A stretch of 64,000 nucleotides of DNA from Thermoplasmata archaeon (GCA_041476045.1 JBGOSQ010000001.1:8846-72845), one strand, 5' to 3'. Positions 5,862 to 53,423 are shown, counted from the first letter of the stretch. Notes: generated from the sequence alone by a model not told the origin. Numbers and translations are program-made.

Positions 5862-6284
5862 ATGAGCGTCGCAGCGGACTTCAGGAAGTTCTTGTTTTCG
5901 GGCAGCCTGATCTTGATGGCCGTCGCCTTCGTCGTCGGCTTGGCCATCGTTGGGTTGATCGGCGCCCTCGTTGCCGACATCATCAACCCGCTCATCGGTG
6001 CCGCGGTGCACGTGAATTTCAATGATCTCGGGATCCTCACCCTCAACGGCAGCCCGATTCTCGGTGGGGCGTTCCTCGGATCGCTCATCAACTTCGTCAT
6101 CCTGATGGCCGTTGTCTTCTTCCTGATCGCCTATCCGTACCAGCTCTCGCAGGACCGCAAGGCGGCCCGGACCGCCGCCGCGCCCCCGACCACCCGGGAC
6201 TGTCCCGCATGCTGCAACGCGATCTCCGTGAAGGCCACGCGCTGCGGCTTCTGCACCTCGACGGTGACACCCTCCTTGCCGTAG
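5862..6284 (+). CDS. mscL: large-conductance mechanosensitive channel MscL with C-terminal CPxC/CxxC zinc-ribbon tail
   Basis: MscL-like N-terminus and two TM helices (FRKF...GNVVDLAVGVIIG-type core). GGAGAGG RBS. C-terminus CPACCNAISVKATRCGFC. Confidence 0.7.
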   Translation: MSVAADFRKFLFSGSLILMAVAFVVGLAIVGLIGALVADIINPLIGAAVHVNFNDLGILTLNGSPILGGAFLGSLINFVILMAVVFFLIAYPYQLSQDRKAARTAAAPPTTRDCPACCNAISVKATRCGFCTSTVTPSLP

Positions 6285-6396
6285 CGACGACCGGGCAACC
6301 CCCGCCAACAGCGAGGTCCCCACCCGCGCGGGCACTATGGGCCGGCGAGGGCCGGGAACCGAGGCGCGGAGTCTGAGCCGCTCGGTTGGGGCGCGA

Positions 6397-8214
6397 TCAC
6401 ATGCGCTCGGGAGCGTCGAGTCCGAGCAGGCCCAGCGCGTTCGCGAGGGTGATCCGGCTCGCGGCGACGAGCGCGATCCGGCTCGCCCGTTCGGTTCCCG
6501 CGGTCAACACCGGGGTCGACTCGTAGAACCGGTTGAACTGCTCGGCCAGGTCGTGCGCGTACCCCGCGAGCGTGTGGACATGGGTCGTCCGCGCGACGTA
6601 AGCGACGACGCCGGGCAGGCGGGAAAGCTGCCGGACGAGCGCGCGTTCGTCCGCGGTTCCGAGGAGCGCCGGATCGAACGCGGGTCGTTCGGGAACGCCC
6701 TCGGCCTTGCGGAGAAGGCTCGAGGCACGCGCGTAGGAGTACTGGAGGAACGGACCGCTGCGGCCCTCGAAGGACAGCGCGTCCTCCCACCGGAACTGGA
6801 CGACCTTCTCGGGTGCCACGCGCAGGATGTGATACCGTACCGCCGCGGCGCCCACCGACTGCGCGATCGCGTCCACTTCGGCGTCCGGCAGACCCTCGCG
6901 GCGCGACCGAACCTCGCCCTTGGCCCGCTCGATCGCCTCGTCGAGGAGATCGTCGAGATAGACGACCTTGCCCTGGCGGGTGGACATCCGACCGCCCTCG
7001 GGGACGGTGATGTCCTGGTAGATCACGTACTCCGGGCGCCGAGACTCGCCGATCTCGGCCAGCATCGCCTCGAGCGTCCGTGCATGCAGGTGGTGGTCCT
7101 GGCCCAGGACGTCGATCGCACGGACGAACCGAGCGAACTTCGAGAGATGGTAGGCGATGTCCCGGGTGGGGTAGAGCGTGGTCCCATCCGGCCGGGTCAC
7201 GATGATCCGGGCGTTCTCCTTGGGAAGACCGTAGGAGGAGGTGTCGAGGGCCGAGGCACCGTTCGCCTCGGTCACCGCGTGAGGGGCCTTCCGCAATCGG
7301 TCGACGACACGCTCGACATCGCCGTTGCGCAGGAAGGAGGACTCCCAGACGAACTCGTCGAACCGTATCCCGATCCGTGCGAGCGAGGCCGACATCCCGC
7401 CCAGCACCGCTTCCGCGATCGTGTGGTGGTTCGGGACATCGCCACCGGTCTCGAGTCTCCGGCTGATGTCCTGGACCTCGGTCGCGGCCTCCGGGTGCGT
7501 CTTCAGGTACTTGCTCACCGCGGGGTACGGGCGACCGTAGCGAACGTCGGGCCGCAGCGCTGCCTCCGCCTCCGGCGTAGTTCCCTCGACGGTCGCGGCG
7601 ATCTCCGGCGGCCACGAGTCTCTCGGCTTGGACCAGATCCACGTCACCATCGCGGCCTGTCGGCCCACGTCGTCGACATAGTACTGGGTCGTGACGGCGG
7701 AGCCGGTCGCACGCAGGACGCGCGCGAGGGTGTCACCGATAATCCCGTTCCGTACCCGGCCGACGTGGAACGGACCCGTCGGGTTCGCGCTAGTGTGCTC
7801 GACGCAGACCGGCGTGAGCGGTCCCGTGAGAGTGCCCCACGCTCCGCCCCGAGCGAAGATCGCGCCCAGTGTGGCGGCCGTCAGGGACACCGGATCGGCG
7901 GTGAAGTTCGCAAAGCCGTTGACCGCGCTGCTGCGCACGATGCCTGGGAGGGCGGGAAGGCCCCGGACGAACTCGTCGGCGAACTCCGCCGGCGATCTCC
8001 CGAGCGCCTTCGCCGGTCGGTGAAGGGCGAGCGCGAGGTCGCCGTGCGCGCTGCCCGATCGGTCCAGCTGGGTTCGGATCGATGCGGGGTCCGCCGGAGC
8101 TTTCAGCTCGGCGAGCCGGACCGAGAGCGCGAGCACGAGCGGATCGACGATCGCATCCCAGGGATCGTCGGCGATGGTCGGAGCATCGGGACCGTGCGGC
8201 GTCGATATCGTCAC
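6397..8214 (-). CDS. argS: arginine--tRNA ligase
   Basis: Class-I aaRS with HVGRVRN (HIGH-like) and ArgRS-type catalytic and anticodon-binding regions. The in-frame GTG at 8214 is preferred over the ORF start at 8346, which would overlap the divergent gene. Confidence 0.85.
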   Translation of the reverse strand: MTISTPHGPDAPTIADDPWDAIVDPLVLALSVRLAELKAPADPASIRTQLDRSGSAHGDLALALHRPAKALGRSPAEFADEFVRGLPALPGIVRSSAVNGFANFTADPVSLTAATLGAIFARGGAWGTLTGPLTPVCVEHTSANPTGPFHVGRVRNGIIGDTLARVLRATGSAVTTQYYVDDVGRQAAMVTWIWSKPRDSWPPEIAATVEGTTPEAEAALRPDVRYGRPYPAVSKYLKTHPEAATEVQDISRRLETGGDVPNHHTIAEAVLGGMSASLARIGIRFDEFVWESSFLRNGDVERVVDRLRKAPHAVTEANGASALDTSSYGLPKENARIIVTRPDGTTLYPTRDIAYHLSKFARFVRAIDVLGQDHHLHARTLEAMLAEIGESRRPEYVIYQDITVPEGGRMSTRQGKVVYLDDLLDEAIERAKGEVRSRREGLPDAEVDAIAQSVGAAAVRYHILRVAPEKVVQFRWEDALSFEGRSGPFLQYSYARASSLLRKAEGVPERPAFDPALLGTADERALVRQLSRLPGVVAYVARTTHVHTLAGYAHDLAEQFNRFYESTPVLTAGTERASRIALVAASRITLANALGLLGLDAPERM

Positions 8215-8257
8215 CGAGAGCAATCGTAAAGCGGAACGGCCATCATAACGATTCCTC

Positions 8258-9157
8258 GTGGCCGCCCTTCTTCTCGTCCGGTACGGTGAGCTTGCGCTCA
8301 AGTCACCGCCCGTCCGGCGGGAGTTCGAACGCACGCTGCGCCACAACGTGCTGGAACTGTTCCTCGCGGCGGGCGAGACGTGCCGGCTGCGCTCGGACCA
8401 CGGCCACCTCTACGTCGAGGCCGACGACGCCGCTCGCGCGATCCGGATCATCCGCCGCGTCTTCGGCGTCACCTCGGTGAGCCGCGTCGTCGAGGTCGCG
8501 ACCGATCCCGCGGCGATCCGTGGGGCGACGATCGAGATGGCGGACCCGCTCCTCACGGACGGTCGGTCCTTCGCGGTTCGCGCCCGTCGTACCGGTCAGC
8601 ACCCGTTCACGAGCCAGGAGCTCGCGGCGTCGGTGGGCAGTGATCTGCTCGACCGGTTCGCCGACCGGCATCTCCGAGTGGATCTCGACCATCCCGAGGT
8701 CGAGCTCTTCGTCGAGGTCCGAGACGCGCGGACCTACCTGTACCTCGATCGCGAGGCCGGGCCGGGCGGACTTCCGCTCGGCGTAGCCGGCCGTGTCGCA
8801 GCCCTGGTCGACGGGCCGCGGGGGGCTCTGGGAGCCTACCTCCTGATGAAGCGGGGGTGCAAGTGCGCGGTCGTCCCGACCACGGTCGGGGCAGCACTTG
8901 TCGAGAACGTCCTACGACGGTTCGATCCGAAAGCCCGCGTGGCCGATACCGTCGTCGACCCGGCCGCGGCCGACGGACCGCTCGCGCTCCTCGCCGACGA
9001 GACGCACGCGGACGGAGTCGTCCTTCCGCTTCTTGTCGACGATTACCCGGCGGCCAAGGAGCGCTGGGGGGAACGGGTCGTCTTTTCTCCCACGGTGGGT
9101 CTCACCGACGAGGAGGTGGAGGGGCGATGGCGCGCCGTCGAACGGCTCGCGGCGTAA
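8258..9157 (+). CDS. ThiI-like THUMP-domain protein with degenerate PP-loop (truncated, probably non-catalytic)
   Basis: N-terminal ferredoxin-like plus THUMP pattern (LLVRYGELALKS...). The PP-loop position reads LVDGPRGALGAYLLMKRG instead of SGGxDS, and the protein is only 299 aa. Confidence 0.55.
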   Translation: MAALLLVRYGELALKSPPVRREFERTLRHNVLELFLAAGETCRLRSDHGHLYVEADDAARAIRIIRRVFGVTSVSRVVEVATDPAAIRGATIEMADPLLTDGRSFAVRARRTGQHPFTSQELAASVGSDLLDRFADRHLRVDLDHPEVELFVEVRDARTYLYLDREAGPGGLPLGVAGRVAALVDGPRGALGAYLLMKRGCKCAVVPTTVGAALVENVLRRFDPKARVADTVVDPAAADGPLALLADETHADGVVLPLLVDDYPAAKERWGERVVFSPTVGLTDEEVEGRWRAVERLAA

Positions 9158-9504
9158 AGACGGTCGGGCTCAGGCCGTTCGTCGTCGAGGACGTCGCAGC
9201 GGCCGGCCGCAACGCCACGGCCCCCGATCCGTCGGCCCCCTCCGTGAGCCTGGCGGGTCGAGAACTTCTTGATGAACGCGTCCGGGCTTGGAAGGAGGAG
9301 CGTGCCCGGTTCGAACGCTCTCGACGGCCGCGTGCTCCGGTCGCCACCGCACGGGATCCGACGATCGCCGACCGCGAACCGTAACCCGGACCGGGCCGTA
9401 GGGCTCCGAACGGTGGACGGTCGAGGGCCCGCACGACGCCCGCTCCCCTCGGACAAAGACTTAAGAACCGTGCCCGGGTGGGCGCGTCCACCCAGGAGGG
9501 CCCC

Positions 9505-9690
9505 GTGCCGCACTGGTCCGTTACCGGGACATTCTTAGCCCGCCGTTGGGATTGGCAGACGTTCACGAAGAGCTGCGAGGCCCCGTCGGCCGACCAGGCG
9601 CGTGAGTGGGCGCTCTCCGAGATCGGTGGGTGCCACGGGGTCAAACGGACACGGATCCGGATAGGCACCGTGACCGAGGTCCAGGCCTGA
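9505..9690 (+). CDS. rplX: ribosomal protein LX (L18Ae/eL20)
   Basis: VTGTFLARRWDWQTFTKSCEAPSADQAREWALSEIGGCHGVKRTRIRI matches the LX consensus (F.V.G.F...FTKE...HGVKRxxIxI). GTG 4 nt after GGAGGG. Conserved position upstream of pfdA and ftsY. Confidence 0.6.
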   Translation: MPHWSVTGTFLARRWDWQTFTKSCEAPSADQAREWALSEIGGCHGVKRTRIRIGTVTEVQA

Positions 9691-9692
9691 GA

Positions 9693-10166
9693 ATGGCGAC
9701 CGCCCCCGTCACGGAGCAACAGGTCCAGGACGACCTGATGCGGCTCGACGCGTACCGCAGTCAGCTCAATCAGCTCGTTCAGCAGCACCAGTACCTGGCC
9801 GCATCGCGCGGCGACCATCTGCGGGCCAAGGAGGCCCTCGAGGGCCTCGATCGCGTCGGGGACGCCTCCGAGCTCCTGATCCCGGTCGGGGGGGAGACGT
9901 ACGTCCACGGTCACCCGGCCGCGGGACGTAAGGTCCTCATCGGCGTCGGGTCCGGCGTCGTCGTGGAGCTCGAGCGGCCTAAGGTCATCGAGATCCTCGC
10001 CGAGCGCCTCACAAAGATCGACCAGGCCGCCCAAGAGCTCGAGGGCCAGATCCGCGGGCTCGACGAGCGCGTGCAGCTCCTCGCCCGACGGATCGACTCG
10101 GTCACGCAGGGAAGCGGATCGTACGAAACCTCGGGACCAGCGTCGGACGATGTGGGCATCGATTAA
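9693..10166 (+). CDS. pfdA: prefoldin alpha subunit
   Basis: Coiled-coil, beta-hairpin, coiled-coil pattern (QLNQLVQQHQYLAASRGDHLRAKEALEGL...VHGH...KIDQAAQELEGQI) in the conserved LX-pfdA-ftsY context. Confidence 0.75.
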   Translation: MATAPVTEQQVQDDLMRLDAYRSQLNQLVQQHQYLAASRGDHLRAKEALEGLDRVGDASELLIPVGGETYVHGHPAAGRKVLIGVGSGVVVELERPKVIEILAERLTKIDQAAQELEGQIRGLDERVQLLARRIDSVTQGSGSYETSGPASDDVGID

Positions 10167-11133
10167 GGCCAAGCTCGGGATCGGTCGGAAGCCCGACGCG
10201 ACCCCCGCGGCCGGTGAGTCTGCTCCCGCCGCCTCCGGAACGAACGAGGTCGCCTTCACCGACAGCTGGCTGGGCGCTAGGATTCGCGAAGGGAAGTTGG
10301 ACGAGGTCCTGGACGACCTCGAGATCGTGCTCCTGCAATCCGATGTGGCCGTTCCCGTCGTCGAAAAGATGCGGAAGAACCTCAAGCGCGACCTCGAGGG
10401 CAAGAAGCTCAAGCTCGGCACGGACGTCGAGGGCGCGATCCGGACGAGCCTCGAGGGCTCGGTCCGCCAGATCCTCTCGAAGCCCGGCCTCGATCTGGTG
10501 GTCACCGCCCGCGGTCACGAGCCGAAACCGTACATCGTCCTGTTCGTGGGCGTGAACGGTACCGGCAAGACGACCACGGTCGCGAAGATCGCCGTGCGAC
10601 TGCGCGACGCCGGGCTCGGGGTCGTCATTGCCGCCGGCGACACGTTCCGCGCCGGGGCGATCGAACAGCTCCTCGTTCACGGGGAGAGGCTGGGGATCCG
10701 GGTCGTCCGTCAGCAGGAGGGCAGCGATCCCGCGGCCGTCGCTTTCGACGCGGTCGAGCACGCGCGCGCGAAGAAGGTCGACGTGGTCCTCATCGACACC
10801 GCGGGCCGCCAGCACACGAACGAGAACCTCATCCAGGAAGCAAAGAAGATCCGTCGTGTCGTCTCCCCCAGCTTGACCCTCTTCGTCGGGGACGCGCTCT
10901 CGGGCAACGATGTCGTCGAGCAGGCACGTCTCTTCGACGAGGCCCTCGGGGTCGACGGTCTCGTCCTGACGAAGCTCGACGCGGACGCCAAGGGCGGCGC
11001 GGCGCTCAGCGCGACGTTCGTGACCGGAAAGCCGATCCTGTTTGTCGGCGTAGGACAAGGGTACGCCGACCTCAAGCCGTTCGACCCTGAGTGGATGGTC
11101 CAACGCCTATTCTCCGAGGGTACGGCCGCGTGA
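10150..11133 (+). CDS. ftsY: signal recognition particle receptor FtsY
   Basis: GTPase G1 box GVNGTGKTTT, plus DTAGR and TKLD motifs of the SRP GTPase family. Confidence 0.9.
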   Translation: MWASIKAKLGIGRKPDATPAAGESAPAASGTNEVAFTDSWLGARIREGKLDEVLDDLEIVLLQSDVAVPVVEKMRKNLKRDLEGKKLKLGTDVEGAIRTSLEGSVRQILSKPGLDLVVTARGHEPKPYIVLFVGVNGTGKTTTVAKIAVRLRDAGLGVVIAAGDTFRAGAIEQLLVHGERLGIRVVRQQEGSDPAAVAFDAVEHARAKKVDVVLIDTAGRQHTNENLIQEAKKIRRVVSPSLTLFVGDALSGNDVVEQARLFDEALGVDGLVLTKLDADAKGGAALSATFVTGKPILFVGVGQGYADLKPFDPEWMVQRLFSEGTAA

Positions 11134-33130: not shown

Positions 33131-33685
33131 CTAGGTCGAATAGTCCGGGCTCGACTCGGCGAACCCCTCGGAGCGATTGAGCGAGAGCGCCATCGCGAAG
33201 AGCAGGTCGCTCACACGGTTGGCCCACTGGAGGAGCTCGGGGGAGATCGGCTCGACCCGGTGCAAGGCCCGCATCTCCCGCTCGGCGCGCCGCGCCACGG
33301 TCCGCGCGACGTGGAGCTCGGTCGCCGCCGGACCGCCGCGCGCGAGCACGAACGTCGAGACGGGGTCGAAGGTGCCGACGAGGCGGTCGATCTCGCGCTC
33401 GGCGCGTAGGACGTGGCGGCTCTCGATGCGGTGGGCGGGCGGCGACCCGCCCAGCGGTGTCGCCAGCTCCGCCTGCGCGACGTACAGCTCGTGCTGGAGC
33501 CTCAGGATCGTCTCGCTGAGGTCCCCGCGGGATCCGGGGAGCTCGGCGGCCGCACGGCCCAGGTGGGCCCCGAGCTCGTCGAGCGTCCCGAAAGCGGCGA
33601 GGCGCGGTGAGTCCTTCGCTACGCGGGCGCCGCCCAGGAGACCGGTCTCGCCGCGGTCGCCGGCGCGGGTGTATAGCCGCGTAAT
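33131..33685 (-). CDS. ATP:cob(I)alamin adenosyltransferase, PduO type
   Basis: A minus-strand frame not listed as a full ORF reads (I/M)TRLYTRAGDRGETGLLGGARVAKDSPRLAAFGTLDELGAHLG...NRVSDLLFAMA. The conserved N-terminus begins immediately after a TGA with ATT at 33685..33683 preceded by GAGG. No ATG/GTG/TTG is present. Confidence 0.55.
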   Translation of the reverse strand: MTRLYTRAGDRGETGLLGGARVAKDSPRLAAFGTLDELGAHLGRAAAELPGSRGDLSETILRLQHELYVAQAELATPLGGSPPAHRIESRHVLRAEREIDRLVGTFDPVSTFVLARGGPAATELHVARTVARRAEREMRALHRVEPISPELLQWANRVSDLLFAMALSLNRSEGFAESSPDYST

Positions 33686-33873
33686 CTCGCCTCAGGTCGT
33701 CCCGGGAGGGCATCGAGCGGAGAGCTCAGTCCGTGGACGGGACAGAACGAGATGTGCAGCACCTCATTATGCTTGGCGTCCTGACGGCACAGTCGGCAGA
33801 TAAATCCGCTTCGCTCACTCCACGCTACGACACCGAACGTTTCCATTTCGACACCCCAATTTTCCCCGGAGAT

Positions 33874-39846: not shown

Positions 39847-42800
39847 CTATACGCCGGCCCGGAACTCGGCCGTGAGCCGATCGGAGGCCGACGGATCCAT
39901 CAGCGCCGGGTTCACTGGAAGGATGAGCCGCCCACCGCTCTCCGAGGCGAGCGCATCCAGCTCGTGGAGGAAGTCGATCGTTCGCGCGCTGCCATGGATG
40001 CGGACCAGGTACTCGACGCCCTCGATGTAGGCGGTGCGGCCCGGGCCGCCGCCGAGGAAGGTTCGGAACAGCGCCCGCAGCGTCTCCAGGTCCCCGGGGC
40101 GGACGGATCCTTCCCGTCCCACGTTCGAGAGCCATACGACGCGGACGTTGCGCGACCCCAAGGCCGCGCGCAGCCGCTCCGGGAATTCCCGACTGAGGCA
40201 GAGCCCGGCAACGCCGGCATCGGTGAGCTCGAGGAACGTAGCCCAGGGCCGGTCGGCGGTCGGCTCGGTCCAGACCTCGACGCCCGAGGGCGGGGGCGGC
40301 GGCGCGGCCGGCGCTTCGGGGGCTGGGACCGGGACCGGCGCAGCCGGCTCGGGGGGTGGCGATGGCGCCTCGGGCTCCGGTTCGGGTTCCGGAGGCGACG
40401 GGGGAGTCGGAAGCTCGATTCGGGGCGCGACCGCGAGGATCGGGTCCGGGATCGACGAGGGCAGGAGGGCCGAGGCGACCTCGATGGTGGCCACCGCAGC
40501 CACCGTGGGGAGGGAACGGGGGGGCGGTTCCGATGGGACGCGCTCGAGGATCAGCGGAGGAGCGGGTCGCGTCAGCTCCATGACGGCGACGGGGGGAGGC
40601 GGAGTAGCGGGAGAAATAGGAGGAACGGAGACCTCCGGTGGCTCACGCGGTCGCATCGGGCGGATCCGAGGGGGCGGCGTGCCTCCGAAGCCCTGCACGA
40701 TCGTCGCGGCGAGGACGGGCCCGAATCCCTCGACCTCGGCCAGCTGCTCGTAGGGGGCGTGGGCGACCGCGTCGAACGAGGTGAGCCCGCTCTCCCACGC
40801 CCGCGCGAGTTTCGCGGGCCCGATGAGCGGGCGGCCGAGCGCGTGGTCGAACGATTCCACCGCTTCGCGGATCGCGGCCTCGCGGGCGCGGAGCCCTTCG
40901 TCGAGAAAGTCGATCACGACGTCGTCGCCGATCGGGCGCCCCGTCGCCCGCCGTCGCGGTCGGCGGGGTCGGGGCGGCTTGCGCCGCGAGGAGACACCGA
41001 CGGGGACTCCCGGGATCCAGAGCGACCACCGCTCCCCCCGGCGCGTCCGACCGTGCGTGGTCTCCGCGGAGACGAACGAGGCGGCATCGGCGGCCACGAC
41101 GATCTCGACCCCTTGCAGGAACTGGCTGATGGCGGCCGCGTGGCGCGTCAGTTCCTCGCCGAGCGTGCCCGATGCGGAAAAGACGACGCGGTCGATCGCC
41201 GAGGGGGTCGCGGCGCGATTGAGGCGGCGGCGCAATAGGTGGAGGAGGCGGAAGCCGTCGGGAGTGAGCGCCGGTGGAGCCGCGTCGCCGCGCCCGGGCA
41301 TGTCCGACGGAAGCGTGACGAAGAGGTCCCCGTGCGCCCACGGGATCGGCACGACGCCCGTCGCCAGCGCCTCCGTGATCTCCACCATGCTCGGGGTGAT
41401 CGGGAGCGGATGGCCCTCGAGCACGAGCTCGAGGCTCCGGGCACGGATGCCGTCCTGGATCCGCGTCGGGCTCATTCCCTCGAGCATCCGAAGGATCCGC
41501 GGCGCCTGGAACGGGTAGGCGCGCTGGATCTCCTCGGGTACGGCGTGGATCCGGACCTGCTTGCCCTCCCAGGGCTGAGAGGGGGAAGCGACGTCGACGC
41601 GTTCGACCCCGGCGAGTCGCTGGAGGACGGCCCGGTGCGATCGGAGCTCGCCGGCCACGGTCTCATCGGTGACGGAGAGGACGATCGCGGGGAGGTGCGA
41701 ATCCGGCGCGAGACCGAGCTCGCTCCGGTACTCTCTCAGCGTGTCGACGACCGAGCGCCATCGCGCGTAGGAGAGTTCGAGCGGCGAATCGAGCAGCAGC
41801 TCCTGGCTCGGCGTGAGCGGTCGCTCGAAGATGCTCGTGCCGTCGCCGCGGAAGCCGCGATGGATCGCCTCCATCGTGAACGGGGCGATCGGCGCGTACA
41901 GTTCCGCCCACAACGGCAGGACGTGCCCGAGGACCCGGCACGCGGCCGCCTTGGGCAGGGGGAACCCGGGAAGATCGAGGCGCGAGCGGGAGAACGCGAG
42001 GTAGCCGGCGCGCAGCTCCTCCTCGAAGAACCGCACGAGTCGGTCCTGCGCCACGTCGACCGCGCCAGTCTCGTAGGCCCGGATGACGTCGATCCGCATC
42101 CGTTCGAAGAGCGACAGGAACGCGCGATCCTCTTCCGGGAGCTCGGCGACGTGGCCGCCGATCGAACGCGGGTCCGGTTCGTAGCCGTCGCGAAGGAACC
42201 GGTCGAGGATCTCGCGTGCGACCTGCCAGATCTTGCGGAGCCGCCGTTCCTCCTGATGACGGCGATCGCCGAGACCGGGGTCGTTGGCCCGCGGCGAAGT
42301 GGCGGTACGCAGGAGCGCGGCCCGCAGCGCGTCCGCCGGGGCGTCGAGCGAGGTCGTCTCGCCCTCGGCCTCGAAGGGAAGCGTCGGCATCGGGACGACG
42401 CGGACCTCGCCGGGGGCCGCGCCCGCGGCCGCGAGTGCGACGGCGTGGTGGACGAGCGCCGGAGCCCGACGTCGTTCGGGGACGTAGAGACGTACGGCAT
42501 CCGCGTCCGGGAACGGACGGTCCGTTGCCCAGATCGCGAGCGCCTCCTGCAGCGAGGGAAGGAGGCGGCGCGCCACCGTGCGCCAGTGCGCGCCGCAGGT
42601 GCATCGCTCCGGCGCGTCGGCGATTGGAGAGAGACGTCCGCAATGGACGCATTCCAACAGATGCGGCGCGTCGGCCGCCTCGGTCGTGCGCCACTCGCTC
42701 ACCGGCCACGCGACCGGGTCCTCGGTCTTCGGGAACGACTCTGCGGGGGCGAGGCGTGCCAGCCGGTCCCGGACCGCGGGCGGTGCGGTGCTCGCGTCGA

Positions 42801-43935
42801 GGCACCAGGCACGCGACGGTTGCCAGTAGAGCGCCGTGCCGCAGACGATGCAGTGGGGCACACCGCGGTGGACGCGCAGCTGCGCGAACAGGAGCCCGGA
42901 CTCGGTGAGGTCACGGAGGACGAACGCCTCGGCCACGTCGACGGGCAGGCCGGCGTACTTGTGCTGGAGGTCCCGGACGAGCTGACCCTCGGCATCGACG
43001 ACCGGCCAGCCCGGGATCCCGAGATGGAACGCCGCCGCGGCGTCGCCGGCACCGTGGGCAGGGACGAGGGCCACCGCGCCGGTGCCGGAGTCATCGACCT
43101 CGGTGGACGCGGCGATCTGCCCCGCCGGGACCGGAAGGCTCGCGAGCGTGGGGAACTCGGTCGCGAGCGGATGCTCGTAGCGGAGACCGACGAGCGTCTC
43201 TCCCTTCTGCTCCTCGAGGACCTCGATCTCGCATCCCTCGAGCCACGACTTGAGACGGCCGATGGCCGAGCTCAGGACGAGGAGCACCTCCTCCGTGCCG
43301 CGGCGTCGATAGCGGATCCGGGCGTACGTGAGGTCCGGGTGGACCAAGACCGCGCTCGTCCCCAGGAGCTTCCACGCGCTGTCGATCCAGACGAGAAGGC
43401 TCGTCCTCGGGGACTTGCCGTCCAGGAGGAAGCGCACGAGGTAGGCGTCGCCGTCCTCGGCCGAGTACACGATGCCCTCCGGGGAGCGGGGGGCGCGGCA
43501 CGCCGGGCACGACCGGAGCGGGAGCTCGCGGCTCGCGAGCAGGCCGTCGCGTGCGAGGTGGTCGACCATCTCCTGGATCTGCGGCGGGCTCGCGACCTCC
43601 GCGAGGGGCTCGAGCCGACCGTTGCCGACCCAAACCCCCGAGGCGGCCAACATCGGTCGGAGGACCTCGAGCGCCGGGTGATCGGTCCGACGTGCCAGGA
43701 GGCGGCCGCGGGTGGGATGTCCTTCCAATCCGAGGAAACGGGATTCGGCATCCGCCCGGACGGCGCGCTGGAGGAAGGAGATCGCCGAGTCGTAGGCCGC
43801 GAGCGCGGCCACCATCTGGTGGAGTCGCGGCCCCGTGCCGCGGCCTCCCGATGTCGGTAGCGACCTCGCCTTCCAGAACGCCGCCGATTCGGCCTGTACC
43901 TGGGCCGGTTCGTAACGGGCCGGAAGTGAACGCAT
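39847..43935 (-). CDS. isoleucyl/valyl-tRNA-synthetase-like pseudo-enzyme fused to HhH motif, Pro-rich linker and an unknown C-terminal alpha/beta domain (1362 aa)
   Basis: Class-Ia aaRS architecture retained: zinc knuckle CPACRAP; YLVRF...LLVWIDSAWKLLGTSAVLVHPDLTY where WTTTPWTLP sits; SGTGAVALVPAHG CP1; CIVCGTALYWQPSRAW. Catalytic HIGH, EGSDQHRGWF and KMSKS positions read PRLHQM, PERRRAPALV and GETTS. The C-terminus has GLTSFDAVAHAPYEQLAEVEGFGPVLAATIV (HhH) and PEPEPEAPSPPPEPAAPVPVPAPE. Confidence 0.6.
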   Translation of the reverse strand: MRSLPARYEPAQVQAESAAFWKARSLPTSGGRGTGPRLHQMVAALAAYDSAISFLQRAVRADAESRFLGLEGHPTRGRLLARRTDHPALEVLRPMLAASGVWVGNGRLEPLAEVASPPQIQEMVDHLARDGLLASRELPLRSCPACRAPRSPEGIVYSAEDGDAYLVRFLLDGKSPRTSLLVWIDSAWKLLGTSAVLVHPDLTYARIRYRRRGTEEVLLVLSSAIGRLKSWLEGCEIEVLEEQKGETLVGLRYEHPLATEFPTLASLPVPAGQIAASTEVDDSGTGAVALVPAHGAGDAAAAFHLGIPGWPVVDAEGQLVRDLQHKYAGLPVDVAEAFVLRDLTESGLLFAQLRVHRGVPHCIVCGTALYWQPSRAWCLDASTAPPAVRDRLARLAPAESFPKTEDPVAWPVSEWRTTEAADAPHLLECVHCGRLSPIADAPERCTCGAHWRTVARRLLPSLQEALAIWATDRPFPDADAVRLYVPERRRAPALVHHAVALAAAGAAPGEVRVVPMPTLPFEAEGETTSLDAPADALRAALLRTATSPRANDPGLGDRRHQEERRLRKIWQVAREILDRFLRDGYEPDPRSIGGHVAELPEEDRAFLSLFERMRIDVIRAYETGAVDVAQDRLVRFFEEELRAGYLAFSRSRLDLPGFPLPKAAACRVLGHVLPLWAELYAPIAPFTMEAIHRGFRGDGTSIFERPLTPSQELLLDSPLELSYARWRSVVDTLREYRSELGLAPDSHLPAIVLSVTDETVAGELRSHRAVLQRLAGVERVDVASPSQPWEGKQVRIHAVPEEIQRAYPFQAPRILRMLEGMSPTRIQDGIRARSLELVLEGHPLPITPSMVEITEALATGVVPIPWAHGDLFVTLPSDMPGRGDAAPPALTPDGFRLLHLLRRRLNRAATPSAIDRVVFSASGTLGEELTRHAAAISQFLQGVEIVVAADAASFVSAETTHGRTRRGERWSLWIPGVPVGVSSRRKPPRPRRPRRRATGRPIGDDVVIDFLDEGLRAREAAIREAVESFDHALGRPLIGPAKLARAWESGLTSFDAVAHAPYEQLAEVEGFGPVLAATIVQGFGGTPPPRIRPMRPREPPEVSVPPISPATPPPPVAVMELTRPAPPLILERVPSEPPPRSLPTVAAVATIEVASALLPSSIPDPILAVAPRIELPTPPSPPEPEPEPEAPSPPPEPAAPVPVPAPEAPAAPPPPPSGVEVWTEPTADRPWATFLELTDAGVAGLCLSREFPERLRAALGSRNVRVVWLSNVGREGSVRPGDLETLRALFRTFLGGGPGRTAYIEGVEYLVRIHGSARTIDFLHELDALASESGGRLILPVNPALMDPSASDRLTAEFRAGV

Positions 43936-46381: not shown

Positions 46382-46768
46382 ATGGCGTGGACGCAGCAGG
46401 AGGTCCGCGAACTCAAGGAAGGCCGGTACATGCTCATCGAGGAGGAGCCGTGCCGGATCATCAGCATCCAGATGTCCAAACCGGGAAAGCACGGTGAGGC
46501 AAAGGCCCGGATCGATGCGGTGGGGCTGTTCGACGGCTCGAAGCGGAGCGTCGTCTTTCCGGTGAAGCACAAGGTCCAGGTACCGATGATCGGCAAGCGC
46601 ACCGCCCAGATCCTCTCCCTCACGGACGTCGAGGTCCAGCTGATGGACCTCGAAAACTACGAAACCTTCTCGCTCCCCATCGAGGCCGAACTGAAAGGCC
46701 AGCTCACGCCCGGCTCGGAGGTCCAGTACCTCGATGCGATGGGGAAGCGCCGCATCACGCGCGCCTGA
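46382..46768 (+). CDS. eif5a: translation initiation factor 5A
   Basis: Hypusine-loop region SKPGKHGEAK plus an OB domain; GAGGT RBS. Confidence 0.9.
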   Translation: MAWTQQEVRELKEGRYMLIEEEPCRIISIQMSKPGKHGEAKARIDAVGLFDGSKRSVVFPVKHKVQVPMIGKRTAQILSLTDVEVQLMDLENYETFSLPIEAELKGQLTPGSEVQYLDAMGKRRITRA

Positions 46769-47236
46769 CGGCACCGGCTCCCCACGACCGCCGCCCGCGC
46801 TGGGCGACCCATCTATTATATCGTGGGCCCGGCATGAATTCCCGTACGGGCCTCGCCCCGGTGGGCGTCGGGCCTAGTACACGGGGAGGCGCAGGCCACG
46901 ACGGGTTCCGGTGGGCTCGGGTCCCTCCCATCATCGCGCCTCACGAAGATCCTCCAGGAAAAGGCGGAGCTCCTCAAGCGGCAGCGCCAGACCGCCGAGC
47001 AATCGTTCCACGATGCCCAGCTGCGCGCCAAGCTGCTCGCGAAGCTGGGCATCGCGGTCCCGGAGGCCGGGGAACGCGAGTCCGCGATCCTCGCCCTCAT
47101 CAAGAGGACCGACTGGGAGGGCGTCGAGACCCAGGCCAGATCGTTCCTCGAATACCTCCTCAGCTCGACCCTGTCCGGATTCGCGGACCGCCGGAAGGAG
47201 CTCACCGAGCTCGGCAGCCGGCTCGTCCAGAACGGA

Positions 47237-50200
47237 ATGCCGTTCCCCGAAACGTTCGTCGAGACCCTCTCCCTCGCGGTCGAGCCTCCCGGGGACGGGG
47301 ACTGGGGGCCCGCGCTTACCGCCCTCGCCCAGATCCTGGAGATGCTCCGGACCGCCGAGGACGCCTTCGGCGAATCGATCCGGACGCGGGCCCAGGCGCT
47401 CGCCGCCTGGTCGGGTGAATCGGAGGACCGACTCCCGGCCCTCGAGGGTCGACTGCGTACGGCCCTCGAACCGCTACGCGAGGGGGACATCCCGAAGGCG
47501 CTGGGACAGGTCAATGACGCGATCACCCACGAGCTACCGAAGGTGGGAGCGCGCCGCGAGGTCGCCCGGGCCGACGGCACGGCCCTCCTCGGTGCCGCGC
47601 GGGACCTTGGGCTTCCGAACGACGTTCTCGATCGCGCGCTGCGTCTCGACTCGCAGGCAACCCCCATCGACTGGAAGGCGACCGTCGAGGCGGTCGAGTC
47701 GGCGAACAACCAGGTCGGCGAGGCGCTTCGCTCGCGCGTCGCCGCCACGTTGGATTCGCTCCGCGCGACGTTGGAGTCGCTCCGAGAATACGGCGTCGAC
47801 CCCACGGAAGCGCTCGCCCAGATCGGGGAGCTGATGGGAGCCGTTCCCACCGCGCCGCCGAACCAGGTGCCGCGACTGCTCGAGCAGGCGCGCGGGATCA
47901 CCGAAGAGCCCGTGGTCGGGATCGTGGCGAGCCTCATCGACACCGTCCGCCCGCGCCTGGTCGAAGCCCGGCGCTTGGGGCGTGACCCGAGCGAGGTGTT
48001 CGCAACGATGAACCGAGCGCGCGAGGCGCTCCGGCTCAAGATCTACTCCGAGGCGCTCGCCGCGAGCCAGGAAGCGCTCGACCGCGTGAGCAACCTCACC
48101 GCCGACCTGGACTCGGCCCGCGAGGAGGCGGAATCGTTGGGGGAGCTCCTCCGCCGTCTCGAGGGGGCGCGATTCCCGACCGACCGGTTCGCCCAGGCGC
48201 TCCAGAAGATCCGCGACCGTCTCGCGGCCGTCGAGCTCGAGGCGGCCCAGACGCTGCTGCGCGAGACCCTCCGCACGATGGGCCAGGAAGCGGCCCAGTT
48301 CTTTTCCGCCCGGCTCGCGATCGTCGAGTCCGTCCTGCCGTTCGCGCGCGAGCGCGGGTTCCTCCCTCCCGACCTCGAGGACGATCTCGCGACCGTCCGA
48401 CGCCACCTGGACGACGGTCGTATCGCCGACGCGGGCGAACTCCTGAGCGCGCTCGAGGTCCGCCTACGGACCACGGCCCTCCCGTACGTCACGCGACGGA
48501 TCGAGGAGCTCGAGAAGGGGTTCACCGAGATCCCCGACGAGTCGCTCATCACTCCCGTCCGCCGCCTGCTCGCCGACGCCGACGTGAACCTCCACGTGAA
48601 GGAGGACCTCCCCGCATCGGCGGAGAGCCTTCGGCGCGCGGAACGCGAGTTCACCTCGGTCTTCGCCGCCCATGCTTCCGCCATGGTCGAGCTCCTCGAG
48701 GAGGAGCGCCGGACCTTGGAAGCGATGGGCGGGGCGGGCGACGAGATCCAGCGCCAGATCGACGAGGTCCAACAGATCTTCAACATGGGGGATTTCGTCA
48801 AGGCCTCGCGGGCGTCGCAGGAGATCCGGACCCGCGCCCACCAGCAGCAGCTCCTCCGCGGCGAGGATGCCATATCGCACGCCAAGCTCGCTCTCGTCGA
48901 GCTCGGCAAGATGGGCGTCGAGGCGGGGCCGCTCCGCACGACGCTCGAGCAGGCGCTAGAGGCCGCGAAGGGGCAGCGATATTCGGACGCGTACCGGATC
49001 GCTGCGGAAACCCAGGACGCCGCCTTGCGGCTCAAGGCGAAGGCCCAGTCGATCCTCGACGGTCTCGCGGCGGCGAACGAGCTGTTCCAGGAGCTCAAGT
49101 CGGGGGGCGTGACCATCGATGTCCACCGCGACAAGATCCGGCTCGCCCAGGTCGCCTACCAGGCGCTCGATTTCGACGGGGCGAAGGACACGCTCGATGT
49201 CCTGATGGCGCTGATGCGCTCCGAGCTCGCCAACGCGGAAACGCGTCGCCTCATCGCCGAGGCCCGGCTCCTCCGCGAGGACGGCCAGCGCCTCTCGATC
49301 CCGACCGACGCGCTGGCCGCCCGGATTACCGAGGCGCAGAGCGCGCTCGACGACGGCCGTTCGTCCGAGGCGCTCCAGAGCGCGCGCCGCGTCGGAACCG
49401 AGCTCGTCGAGACGCTGCGCCCCGTCCTTGCGGAGAACCTGCGGACCCTCGAGCAGGACCTCGAGGTGGCCCAGTCGGCCGGCCTCGACATCGCGCCGGT
49501 CGTCGAGGTCCTCGGGGAGGCGCGGCGCCGTCTCGGCCTTCCGGTTCCGGTGGGCGTCGCCGAGCTCGTCGAGCGCGCGAGCGCCCAGCTCGTGGAGACC
49601 CGCGGCTTCCTCGAGCACGCCGACCGCGCCCTCAAGCGCGCGGCGGAGGCGTTGAACCAGGGCGAGCTCGTGCGCGCCTCGGTCCCGAACGGACGCGATC
49701 GCCTCGCGGCGGTCGAGACGACCCTCAAGCGGCGCGACTACGCGCGCGCGATCGAGCTCGCCGGCACGCTCGAGCGCGAGATGCTCCAGGTGACCTACCA
49801 GCAGGTGTCGAAGAACCTCGCCGGATTCCAGGGCGTCCTCGTTCGGGCGCGCCAGGCCGGCGGGGACACCGCGATCGCGGAGAACCTTTTGATGCAGGCG
49901 CGCCAGGCGCTCGAGGAGGGTCGTCCCCTCGAGGCGCTCCAGCTCGCCTCCCGTAGCGAGGCCGAACTAGAGCGCGTCGAGCTCCAGCTACGGATCGCCG
50001 AAGGTTCCCTCCGCACGATGCAGGGCAAGCTCGAGTCGGCGGAGAAGGAGGGACTGCAGGCCCGCGTCGCGCGGGAGAAGCTCGCCGAGGCCGAGCAGTC
50101 GTTCCGCGATCACCTCTACCCGATCGTCCTCGAGCTCGCGATCGACGCCTCCGACTCGCTCGCGGTCTCGCGCGAGGGGTTCCGGCGGGCGCGCGAGGCG

Positions 50201-51373
50201 CTCGATTCCGCGGACCGGCAGGTCAAGTCGGCGATGGAGCTCGGCGCAGACGTCGCCGAGGCGATGCCGGTGCTCGAGGCGGCGCGCTCGGCTCAGCAGA
50301 CCGGCGACTATCCCGACGCGACGCGCAAGGGTCGGGAGGTCGCGGAGATGGCGCGGTGGGCGATCGAGCGGCTCTACTCCGGCGCCCTCAGCGATCTGCG
50401 TCACCTGACGGAAACGGCGCGCGCCGCCGGCCTTCCCGACGACGCGGCCGATCCGAGCCGCGGGGTCGAGGAGGTCGAGACCGCGCTCCAGACGCGCGAT
50501 TGGAAGCGCGCGAACGAGCTGCTCCAGTCGGCGCGCGAGTCCACGACGGCCGCGATGACCGCGCGCCTGGACGGTCGGATCGCCGAGATCGAGTCGCTCT
50601 ACGCCGCGATGGGAGCCCCGCCGGAGCCCGAGATCCCGCTGCGGGAGGCGGCGCGGGCCCGGATCGCCGAGGCGCGCACCCGGGGGGCGTTCGCGGAAGC
50701 CCTCGGGGTCCTTCGGGACGAGGAGGCGCGCATCGCCGAGCATCAGCGCACCGACCTGCAGGCGCGGGTCACCGCGCTTCGCGAGCGCCTCTGGATCGGC
50801 GAAAAGCTGGGCGTCGACACGACACCCGTCATGGAGATCTTCAGCGAAGGTCAGCTCGCGCTCCAGTCGGGGAAGCTGGTCGAGGTCCCGGCATTCGTCG
50901 ATCGGGGCGAGGAGCTCCTCCGCTCGCTCGTCGCGACCCGGGTCCCGGAGCGCCTCCGCGAGACCCAGACGGAGCTCGTCTTCGCCCAAGAGGGGCTTCA
51001 CGTCGCGCTCGACGACGTCGCCGACCGTCTCAAGGCCGTCGGCGCGCTCCTCTCGAGCGGCTCCCCTATCGAGGCCGCCCAGCTCGTCCTGACCTCGACC
51101 GAGGAGCTCAACCGACGCAAGGCGCTCCACCGCGAGCTGATGAACCTCCACTATCTCATCGACGCCGCGCTGGGACGCGCGGCGGAGCGCCACGTCGACA
51201 CCGCGGCCGCCCGCCGGCTCCTCGACGAGTCGATCCACGTGCGCGTGACCGACTACGCCCTTGCGCTCGAAAAGGCGCGCGAAGCGCTCCGGCTCCTGCA
51301 GGGACAGCTGCAGGGGACGGAGAGCGTGACGCCCGCGAACTTCTGGCCGTTCCGCAAGGCGCCCGGGGCCTGA
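47237..51373 (+). CDS. giant all-alpha repetitive protein (at least 1378 aa; frame open back to 46838 with no canonical start)
   Basis: Low-complexity, Ala/Leu/Glu/Arg-rich helical repeats (...EALQ.AR....EL...LR...L..L..DLEVAQSAGLD..PVVEVL.EARRRL...). The same frame upstream of 47237 encodes TKILQEKAELLKRQRQTAEQSFHDAQLRAKLL..., a clear coiled coil, yet contains no ATG/GTG/TTG. Confidence 0.6.
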   Translation: MPFPETFVETLSLAVEPPGDGDWGPALTALAQILEMLRTAEDAFGESIRTRAQALAAWSGESEDRLPALEGRLRTALEPLREGDIPKALGQVNDAITHELPKVGARREVARADGTALLGAARDLGLPNDVLDRALRLDSQATPIDWKATVEAVESANNQVGEALRSRVAATLDSLRATLESLREYGVDPTEALAQIGELMGAVPTAPPNQVPRLLEQARGITEEPVVGIVASLIDTVRPRLVEARRLGRDPSEVFATMNRAREALRLKIYSEALAASQEALDRVSNLTADLDSAREEAESLGELLRRLEGARFPTDRFAQALQKIRDRLAAVELEAAQTLLRETLRTMGQEAAQFFSARLAIVESVLPFARERGFLPPDLEDDLATVRRHLDDGRIADAGELLSALEVRLRTTALPYVTRRIEELEKGFTEIPDESLITPVRRLLADADVNLHVKEDLPASAESLRRAEREFTSVFAAHASAMVELLEEERRTLEAMGGAGDEIQRQIDEVQQIFNMGDFVKASRASQEIRTRAHQQQLLRGEDAISHAKLALVELGKMGVEAGPLRTTLEQALEAAKGQRYSDAYRIAAETQDAALRLKAKAQSILDGLAAANELFQELKSGGVTIDVHRDKIRLAQVAYQALDFDGAKDTLDVLMALMRSELANAETRRLIAEARLLREDGQRLSIPTDALAARITEAQSALDDGRSSEALQSARRVGTELVETLRPVLAENLRTLEQDLEVAQSAGLDIAPVVEVLGEARRRLGLPVPVGVAELVERASAQLVETRGFLEHADRALKRAAEALNQGELVRASVPNGRDRLAAVETTLKRRDYARAIELAGTLEREMLQVTYQQVSKNLAGFQGVLVRARQAGGDTAIAENLLMQARQALEEGRPLEALQLASRSEAELERVELQLRIAEGSLRTMQGKLESAEKEGLQARVAREKLAEAEQSFRDHLYPIVLELAIDASDSLAVSREGFRRAREALDSADRQVKSAMELGADVAEAMPVLEAARSAQQTGDYPDATRKGREVAEMARWAIERLYSGALSDLRHLTETARAAGLPDDAADPSRGVEEVETALQTRDWKRANELLQSARESTTAAMTARLDGRIAEIESLYAAMGAPPEPEIPLREAARARIAEARTRGAFAEALGVLRDEEARIAEHQRTDLQARVTALRERLWIGEKLGVDTTPVMEIFSEGQLALQSGKLVEVPAFVDRGEELLRSLVATRVPERLRETQTELVFAQEGLHVALDDVADRLKAVGALLSSGSPIEAAQLVLTSTEELNRRKALHRELMNLHYLIDAALGRAAERHVDTAAARRLLDESIHVRVTDYALALEKAREALRLLQGQLQGTESVTPANFWPFRKAPGA

Positions 51374-53320: not shown

Positions 53321-53423
53321 GCTCCCGTAGTCTAGTGGTCAAGGATAGAGGCCTCTCGAGCCTCTGACGCGGGTTCAAATCAGCGTGGGAACCACCCCAC
53401 CTCTGAAACTCCCGCCGGGAGCA
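53321..53423 (+). tRNA. tRNA-Glu (anticodon CUC) with 30-nt intron in the T-loop (about 53381..53410)
   Basis: Acceptor GCTCCCG/CGGGAGC (7 bp), D-stem GTCT/GGAT, anticodon stem GAGGC/GCCTC with loop CTCTCGA (U33, CUC), T-stem GCGGG...CCCGC only after removing CAGCGTGGGAACCACCCCACCTCTGAAACT; discriminator A. The spliced length is 73 nt. Confidence 0.75.

Follow-up and report, generated by a model that had tools for sequence, protein, structure and literature searches.

Where does translation of a very large gene begin when its reading frame holds no recognised start codon near its 5' end? The question is raised by a giant gene next to aIF5A in a 64,000-nt stretch of DNA from Thermoplasmata archaeon (GCA_041476045.1, JBGOSQ010000001.1:8846-72845), hereafter the window, whose G+C content is ~70% and whose positions are counted from its first letter. 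From its first canonical start codon, the open reading frame (ORF) of this gene spans 47237..51373 in frame 2 and encodes 1378 amino acids (aa), which is also the extent of the existing annotation (P0001). The same frame is open from 46838, where it is bounded by a TGA (46835-46837), and the 133 codons before 47237 include no ATG, GTG or TTG. An ATG at 46834 overlaps this TGA and sits in a different frame from the giant ORF. An earlier note, made from the sequence of the window, had described this arrangement correctly in every particular and had offered two explanations, a frameshift or non-canonical initiation. Comparison with related species favours the latter and indicates that translation probably begins at an ACG codon (46898-46900) by Shine-Dalgarno (SD)-directed near-cognate initiation; the existing annotation begins 113 residues short of this ACG-started product. 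Coordinates of all features are collected in Table 1.

Conservation of the N-terminal extension

The frame upstream of 47237 had coding-type composition (GC1/2/3 = 0.68/0.50/0.88), and 263 relatives were found with the extended translation. Among the best 120 of these, most were 1480-1500 aa long with 100% query coverage, and every named relative was a 'Thermoplasmata archaeon'. The N-terminal sequence LPSSRLTKILQEKAE was invariant across more than 100 homologs, whose N-termini read M(G)(S/G)LPSSRLT(K/R)ILQEKAE..., with S4, S5, R6, L7, L11, Q12, E13, K14 and A15 invariant. In the stretch SSRLTKILQEKA, the residues S, S, R, L, L, Q, E, K and A were likewise invariant (>100 homologs). Most homologs with the extension began, at their far N-terminus, with a canonical start codon. 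Homologs at ~25% identity had an ordinary ATG, with N-termini MSGLGGS, MSGDGGF or MVGGGGS, and the Met of this ancient N-terminus is matched by the ACG of the window. Judged by these comparisons, the 113 codons upstream of the annotated start are coding. Two of the checks named in the earlier note, a homolog search for the extension and the composition of the upstream frame, gave the same answer, the whole extended query being covered by its homologs.

The peptide that follows the ACG column, x(T/S)G(S/P)GGxG(S/G)(L/V)P, was also kept, and its Gly, Ser and Pro codons varied freely. Approximately one fifth of the best 120 family members had been called 30–120 residues short, including P0001 and many of those closest to it (1383, 1427, 1431, 1383, 1382 aa, etc.). 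As several close relatives were also called short, the same missing start is common to several independent assemblies. This can be attributed to the lack of ATG, GTG or TTG at the probable start, the ACG, which would lead gene callers to truncate the giant gene.

An ACG codon at the homologous start position

Eighty loci from distinct GTDB species were fetched and codons were read upstream of the invariant SSRLT; the start-codon comparison covered 66 related Thermoplasmata species. At the column 11 codons before SSRLT, 38 loci had ACG, 12 had ATG, two had GTG, and ATT and CTG occurred once each. Loci with a one-codon insertion or a three-codon deletion had canonical codons at the shifted positions, namely ATG at -12 (four loci) and ATG (seven loci) or GTG (one locus) at -8. 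The codon is thus one base from AUG, at a site homologous to the AUG or GUG of orthologs. All 38 Thr codons in the start column were ACG and none was ACC, ACA or ACT. The next codon, where it encoded Thr, was ACA (nine), ACG (eight) or ACC (six), and ACG accounted for 42% of the Thr codons of the giant gene as a whole. The naive probability of 37/37 ACG was 1.6e-14, or 3e-5 if ~12 independent lineages are assumed. On the protein tree, the start codon switched state between ACG, ATG and GTG approximately 10 times, and ATG and GTG clades were nested inside ACG clades.

In 17 species, including that of the window, the frame had no canonical start from the in-frame stop upstream as far as SSRLT, and in several species this stop was only 15 codons upstream (TAG GGG GGT GGT CGC ACG). 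The pattern of substitution also changed at the ACG. The three closest relatives (76-83% identity) had nearly the same leader as the window between TATA box and ACG, and over the next 17 codons they differed at third codon positions only. The close relatives L019, L021, L048 and L051 differed by 1–2 nt indels within the G-rich SD block, which therefore keeps no reading frame. Stops and indels before the ACG and third-position variation directly after it mark the boundary between untranslated and translated sequence. Cross-species comparison shows where the start lies, that it is ACG, that it interchanges with ATG and GTG, that an SD precedes it and that the sequence upstream is non-coding. An assembly or sequencing error was ruled out, as 37 independent assemblies have the ACG and so do the three closest relatives.

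Signals upstream of the ACG

A G-rich block at -13..-5 was found in 37/37 ACG loci, with G at 81-89% at positions -12..-9. To evaluate pairing, the anti-SD was assumed to have the usual archaeal sequence, there being no 16S gene in the window, where one gene had a perfect GGAGGTGA. With this anti-SD, the SD duplex of the giant gene in the window reached -10.1 kcal/mol, and all but one of the ACG loci were at -9 kcal/mol or stronger. The mean duplex was stronger in ACG loci (-11.7 kcal/mol) than in ATG/GTG loci (-7.3 kcal/mol; Mann-Whitney, p = 2.7e-6, phylogeny ignored), a contrast that we treat as supportive only. A ribosome-binding signal thus stands at functional spacing before the ACG, given the assumed anti-SD, and there was no SD ahead of 47237 (dG -1.9). 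A single RNA gene, tRNA-Glu(CTC) at 53321..53393, was detected in the window; no rRNA gene was found.

No pairs were predicted by RNAalifold as consensus RNA structure in the leader and early coding region, Rfam gave no matches at the start region of the giant gene, and per-sequence pairing profiles around the ACG were uninformative in this GC-rich RNA. No conserved blocks were present upstream of the start besides the TATA box, the CATGAAw motif and the G-run of the SD.

The TATA-like element that the earlier note had seen ahead of ATG 46834 is present as TATTATAT. In all loci, a TATA box was centred 78–86 nt before the start and was followed 13–16 nt later by gCATGAAw or CATCATTTT, the motif that contains ATG 46834 in the window. 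Archaeal promoters have an A/T-rich proximal element around -10 and a TATA box whose centre is near -26/-27. By this geometry, transcription would start near 46844-46846, with a leader of ~53 nt. This start would lie 3' of ATG 46834, which would place the ATG outside the mRNA. Across loci L001–L079 this promoter architecture was strongly conserved, and its spacing from the start codon (~60–90 nt upstream) varied little. Short inverted repeats flanked the second promoter element in several loci (GGGCCCG..CGGGCC in the window) and might be a regulator site.

A second gene with a putative ACG start

Every long ORF of the window was screened by composition for a coding lead that lacks a start. Only the giant gene and one other frame were flagged, 33131..33691 on the minus strand, which corresponds to a PduO-type ATP:cob(I)alamin adenosyltransferase. 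Its family assignment was firm (PF01923, 5.8e-46, profile positions 1-169 of 171; TIGR00636, 1.8e-45, over the cut-off). The lead of this frame had coding composition and ran for 114 codons without a canonical start. Its 5' end consists of a TGA followed by GGC GAG ATT ACG CGG CTA TAC ACC (..G E I T R L Y T R A G D..), so that the TGA lies four codons before the ACG, and GAGG is found 7 nt before the ACG. Position 1 of PF01923 maps to residue 3, position 1 of TIGR00636 maps three residues past the ACG, and the ACG occupies the Met position of the family.

Seven metagenomic relatives of the adenosyltransferase were recovered (loci L083–L089). Four distinct sequences (L083, L084/L085, L087 and L088) had GGAGG, a spacer of 7–8 nt and ACG at the same place, and in L083, L084/L085 and L087 no canonical start occurred from the upstream stop to 42–90 codons downstream. 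Among the other states, one relative had ATC and one had TTG one codon earlier.

Further combinations of an SD with ACG before ftsY (9901), an M16 peptidase and a PRK04017 gene were dismissed, as canonical starts fit these families. The sequence cggtcgggggggagacgtACGtccACG at 9883..9906 closely resembles the SD and ACG region that other species have at the giant gene. It falls within another coding frame (9606..10166) and precedes ftsY, for which the ATG start suits the family, and the resemblance is probably due to chance. When the N-termini of 19 other ORFs in the window were mapped to NCBIfam, none spoke against a canonical start, a few ORFs having no informative match, and neighbouring gene families in the 80 loci had ATG or GTG starts. 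A D-aminoacyl-tRNA deacylase-like ORF in a related species (L076, 9186..10178) had 102 codons of coding-like composition (...RPTATLEFLIVLSELDP...) ahead of its first canonical start, and may represent a further non-canonical start in that species.

Proposed mechanism and alternative explanations

We propose that the giant gene is transcribed as a leadered mRNA from its own TATA-box promoter, and that the GGGGAGG 8 nt upstream would position the 30S subunit with the ACG in the P site. The ACG would most likely be read there as a near-cognate by initiator Met-tRNA, with a C:A mismatch at the middle base. We infer that the first residue would be Met, giving the predicted N-terminal peptide (M)TTGSGGLGSLPSSR. 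In E. coli, the N-terminus of ACG-initiated protein was Met, with some Thr in one ACG culture (bioRxiv 10.1101/063800). As a weak, SD-dependent start, the ACG may keep expression low or sensitive to start-codon stringency. Because the ACG is kept in most species of the clade and the unrelated adenosyltransferase gene is built alike, the arrangement does not appear to be a one-off.

Several points weigh against near-cognate initiation at this site. To our knowledge, ACG is absent from the start list of the bacterial and archaeal code (table 11). Only ~2/47 genes in the window need an ACG start, so its usage would be rare. Some ATG clades nested in ACG clades retain strong SDs, the SD contrast is uncorrected for phylogeny, and the anti-SD sequence is an assumed one. 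Editing of the mRNA from C to U would produce the same genomic pattern. Known archaeal start codons are AUG, GUG and UUG (PMC4705826, PMC4574771), and ACG initiation in E. coli reaches ~0.1-1% of that at AUG (bioRxiv 10.1101/063800). Near-cognate sites seen in ribosome profiling of Haloferax were set aside as possible false positives (PMC7261190), and our literature search for a conserved ACG start of a main ORF in archaea found no report.

The alternative that survives best, though we consider it unlikely, is a lineage-specific change in the initiation machinery, such as a variant initiator tRNA or relaxed aIF1/aIF2, that makes ACG an efficient regular start. The use of ACG by two unrelated genes in one 64-kb window and its maintenance over deep divergence in many species would both fit such a change. 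Set against these are the small share of window genes that need ACG, the ATG or GTG starts of neighbouring families throughout, and the dependence on a strong SD, which suggests a weak codon. A broader proposition, that ACG is a genuine fourth start codon for a few per cent of genes, the giant gene and the adenosyltransferase among them, in this whole soil and peat Thermoplasmata clade, through changed initiation machinery or C-to-U editing, is possible, and we hold it to be doubtful. If it were correct, gene callers and code tables would systematically mis-annotate these genomes.

Editing by itself, in which the mRNA is changed from C to U at 46899 and presents the ribosome with an ordinary AUG, appears very unlikely. 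It would account for the strict use of ACG, as opposed to ACC, ACA or ACT, where other species have ATG. Plant organelles create AUG starts from genomic ACG by such editing, for which PPR/DYW factors are required, and the likeness extends to a genomic ACG exactly where orthologs carry ATG. However, we know of no PPR/DYW editing factors in archaea, unlike plant organelles, and of no case of archaeal C-to-U mRNA editing, the only editing familiar to us being that of tRNA C8 in Methanopyrus. Furthermore, no conserved sequence or structure surrounds the site beyond the SD and the ACG, and the consistently strong SD at ACG loci is more readily explained as making up for a weak codon than by a restored AUG.

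An equally improbable reading places the start at another non-canonical codon past the ACG, for example CTC 46916, six codons later. In 29 species the corresponding column (-5) has ATG (15), TTG (10) or GTG (4), and gene callers then take it as the start. Elsewhere the column has CTC (12), ATC (10) and GTC (6), as well as CCC, TCG and GGC, which is the pattern of an M/L/I/V amino-acid position, and the candidate was rejected on this codon spectrum. In addition, the G-rich SD is at least 23 nt away from it, and the GGNGG directly before it has no spacing. The peptide (T/S)G(S/P)GG between the two columns is conserved with synonymous variation, which argues that it is translated.

A start at ATG 46834 followed by a frameshift, whether programmed or caused by an assembly indel, that joins the frames between 46840 and 46920 is effectively excluded. 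The frame of this ATG is open for 194 codons in the window, but its translation (MNSRTGLAPVGVGPSTRGG...) is not conserved. Across 65 species, the equivalent of this ATG was in frame 0, 1 or 2 in 15, 16 and 12 loci and was replaced by ATC in 17, and a stop preceded the gene start in 33/43 loci that have the ATG; the upstream ORF was thus not conserved in phase, and the frameshift considered in the earlier note can be discarded. No conserved slippery site or stimulatory RNA structure was found (RNAalifold, Rfam), the ATG falls within the conserved motif 13–16 nt past the TATA box and probably upstream of the transcription start, and the ACG arrangement recurs in 37 independent assemblies, the three closest relatives having no indels. 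Just as untenable is the annotated start at Met47237, the first canonical start codon, with the upstream frame untranslated: it is ruled out by the coding composition and conserved residues of the upstream codons, the far N-terminal canonical starts of most homologs and the modelling of the extension as repeats 1-2 of a regular array (pLDDT 85–91), and the SD is missing before it.

Near-cognate initiation at the ACG can also be compared with known systems. In eukaryotes and viruses, ACG initiation is exemplified by AAV VP2 and Sendai virus C'. As in those cases, the codon of the giant gene is one base from AUG, stands at the initiation position, needs a favourable context and probably has a lower initiation rate. 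In contrast, the context here is an SD duplex on a leadered mRNA of prokaryote type, whereas there it is scanning with a Kozak context, and the ACG would be the only start of the main ORF and not an alternative start for an isoform. Accepted alternative starts are GUG and UUG and, rarely, AUU, AUC, AUA and CUG, such as the AUU of E. coli infC. These are likewise directed by an SD, are one base off AUG, swap with AUG in orthologs and provide a weak codon on particular genes. Unlike them, ACG has its mismatch at the middle base, and it ranks below AUU, AUC, AUA and CUG in E. coli (10.1101/063800). Non-AUG initiation is therefore known in kind, and what would be new is a conserved, SD-driven ACG start of an archaeal main ORF in two unrelated genes.

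If initiation at this ACG is real, we know of no earlier evolutionary case of an archaeal main-ORF ACG start. The archaeal factors aIF1, aIF1A and aIF2 are homologous to eukaryotic initiation factors (PMC4705826), and the pairing of SD and ACG would offer a system for probing the stringency of start selection by archaeal aIF1/aIF2 and the use of weak starts to set expression. Prodigal and PGAP shorten or mis-extend such genes, and the truncated or mis-extended calls would introduce systematic N-terminal errors into the proteomes of these abundant soil archaea.

The giant protein

The product from the ACG would comprise 1491 aa, rich in A (15%), L (14%), E (11%) and R (11%). AlphaFold2 models of both halves were wholly helical (mean pLDDT 89.3 and 89.0) and no match to an enzymatic family was found, in keeping with the almost entirely helical protein without enzymatic motifs described in the earlier note. 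The internal repetition reported there is also present, with a period of ~62.7 residues in place of the proposed 35–40. Long helices started 58–65 residues apart (mean 62.7), and the profiles of the N-terminal and C-terminal halves aligned at offsets that were multiples of ~62.5 (hhalign probability 97%, E 1.8e-10), which indicates that the repeats are homologous. Repeat units typically ended in ..G(D/R) and restarted with (Y/W/F/P)xxA, a TPR-like feature. The last ~16 residues formed a disordered tail (pLDDT <50).

The giant protein had no significant match in Pfam (E 0.001), NCBIfam or PDB sequences, and no Foldseek match to the PDB at E<0.001. The best weak Foldseek matches were to spectrin-fold PRC1, spectrin repeats, vinculin and designed helical repeats. 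Like TPR and spectrin scaffolds, the protein is made of all-helical tandem repeats, in which the short helix ends in G-(D/R) and the next starts with aromatic-xx-A. Its period of ~63 residues, however, differs from that of TPR (34 residues), to which no Pfam match fell below E 0.001, and from that of spectrin, whose unit is a three-helix bundle of 106 residues and to which the PRC1/spectrin matches had E>0.2 and TM<0.25. The models tentatively suggest a rod or solenoid of 24 TPR-like or spectrin-like helical repeats, for which a structural or scaffolding role may be conjectured.

The family formed 68 clusters in a library of 1.84 billion representatives, and its named members belonged to Thermoplasmatota only. 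Members at 18-26% identity had lengths of ~1460–1620 aa. A distant lineage, in which the gene is not beside aIF5A, has a C-terminal Prok-RING_1 zinc finger (PF14446). These homologs resemble the window protein in being ~1500 residues long and collinear at 18-22% identity, and their N-terminal helix, ...LQxxKQLQEKAKEA, is equivalent to SRLTKILQEKAE of the window. They differ in their Cys-rich C-terminus, which the window clade lacks, ending in FWPFRRPP instead. Distant homologs (18-25% identity) were located at 6001-10593 in L090 and at 6001-10404 in both L091 and L092. A Thermoplasmatota-specific protein of ~1500 residues with 24 repeats, a length kept to ~20% identity and a persistent linkage to aIF5A would be a target for structural and cell-biological study.

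Gene neighbourhood

The aIF5A neighbour named in the earlier note is borne out by the Pfam matches of the upstream gene (Table 1). The gene was found immediately upstream of the giant gene in 63/64 loci, with a gap of 115–157 nt, and the 151-aa gene downstream was at the same position in 59/64 loci (tblastn). At the locus of a homolog with 25% identity, aIF5A was also upstream and ScpB-ScpA-SMC lay convergently downstream.

Table 1 Location of the giant gene, its control elements, adjacent genes and the adenosyltransferase gene in the window.
Feature	Position	Strand	Remarks
PduO-type ATP:cob(I)alamin adenosyltransferase	33131..33682	-	Putative ACG start 33682-33680
aIF5A	46382..46768	+	Pfam IF5A-like_N 6.7e-15, eIF-5a 5.7e-08
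TATA box TATTATAT	46814..46821	+	Identical in three closest relatives; putative promoter role, from archaeal promoter geometry
Promoter-proximal motif CATGAAT	46833..46839	+	Holds ATG 46834; conserved as gCATGAAw or CATCATTTT
Shine-Dalgarno GGGGAGG	46883-46889	+	8-nt spacer to ACG
Putative initiation codon ACG	46898-46900	+	Homologous column, 11 codons before SSRLT
Giant gene, full predicted coding sequence	46898..51373	+	1491 codons plus TGA; 113 residues more than annotation
Gly-rich N-terminal peptide (M/T)TGSGGLGSLP	46898..46930	+	pLDDT 35 for residues 1-11, disordered
24 tandem helical repeats, ~63 residues	46931..51313	+	Long helix ~40 plus short helix ~14 (AlphaFold2)
C-terminal motif FWPF(R/K)(R/K)	51341..51358	+	Consensus FWPFRRPP; W, P, R nearly invariant
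Convergent downstream gene, 151 aa	51378..51833	-	No Pfam/NCBIfam match

Elsewhere in the window, the minus strand at 39847..43935 encodes a 1362-aa protein that combines a PF08264 tRNA-ligase anticodon-binding domain, helix-hairpin-helix motifs and a C-terminal DUF835, and a protein of this kind occupies the same position in the distant locus L081.

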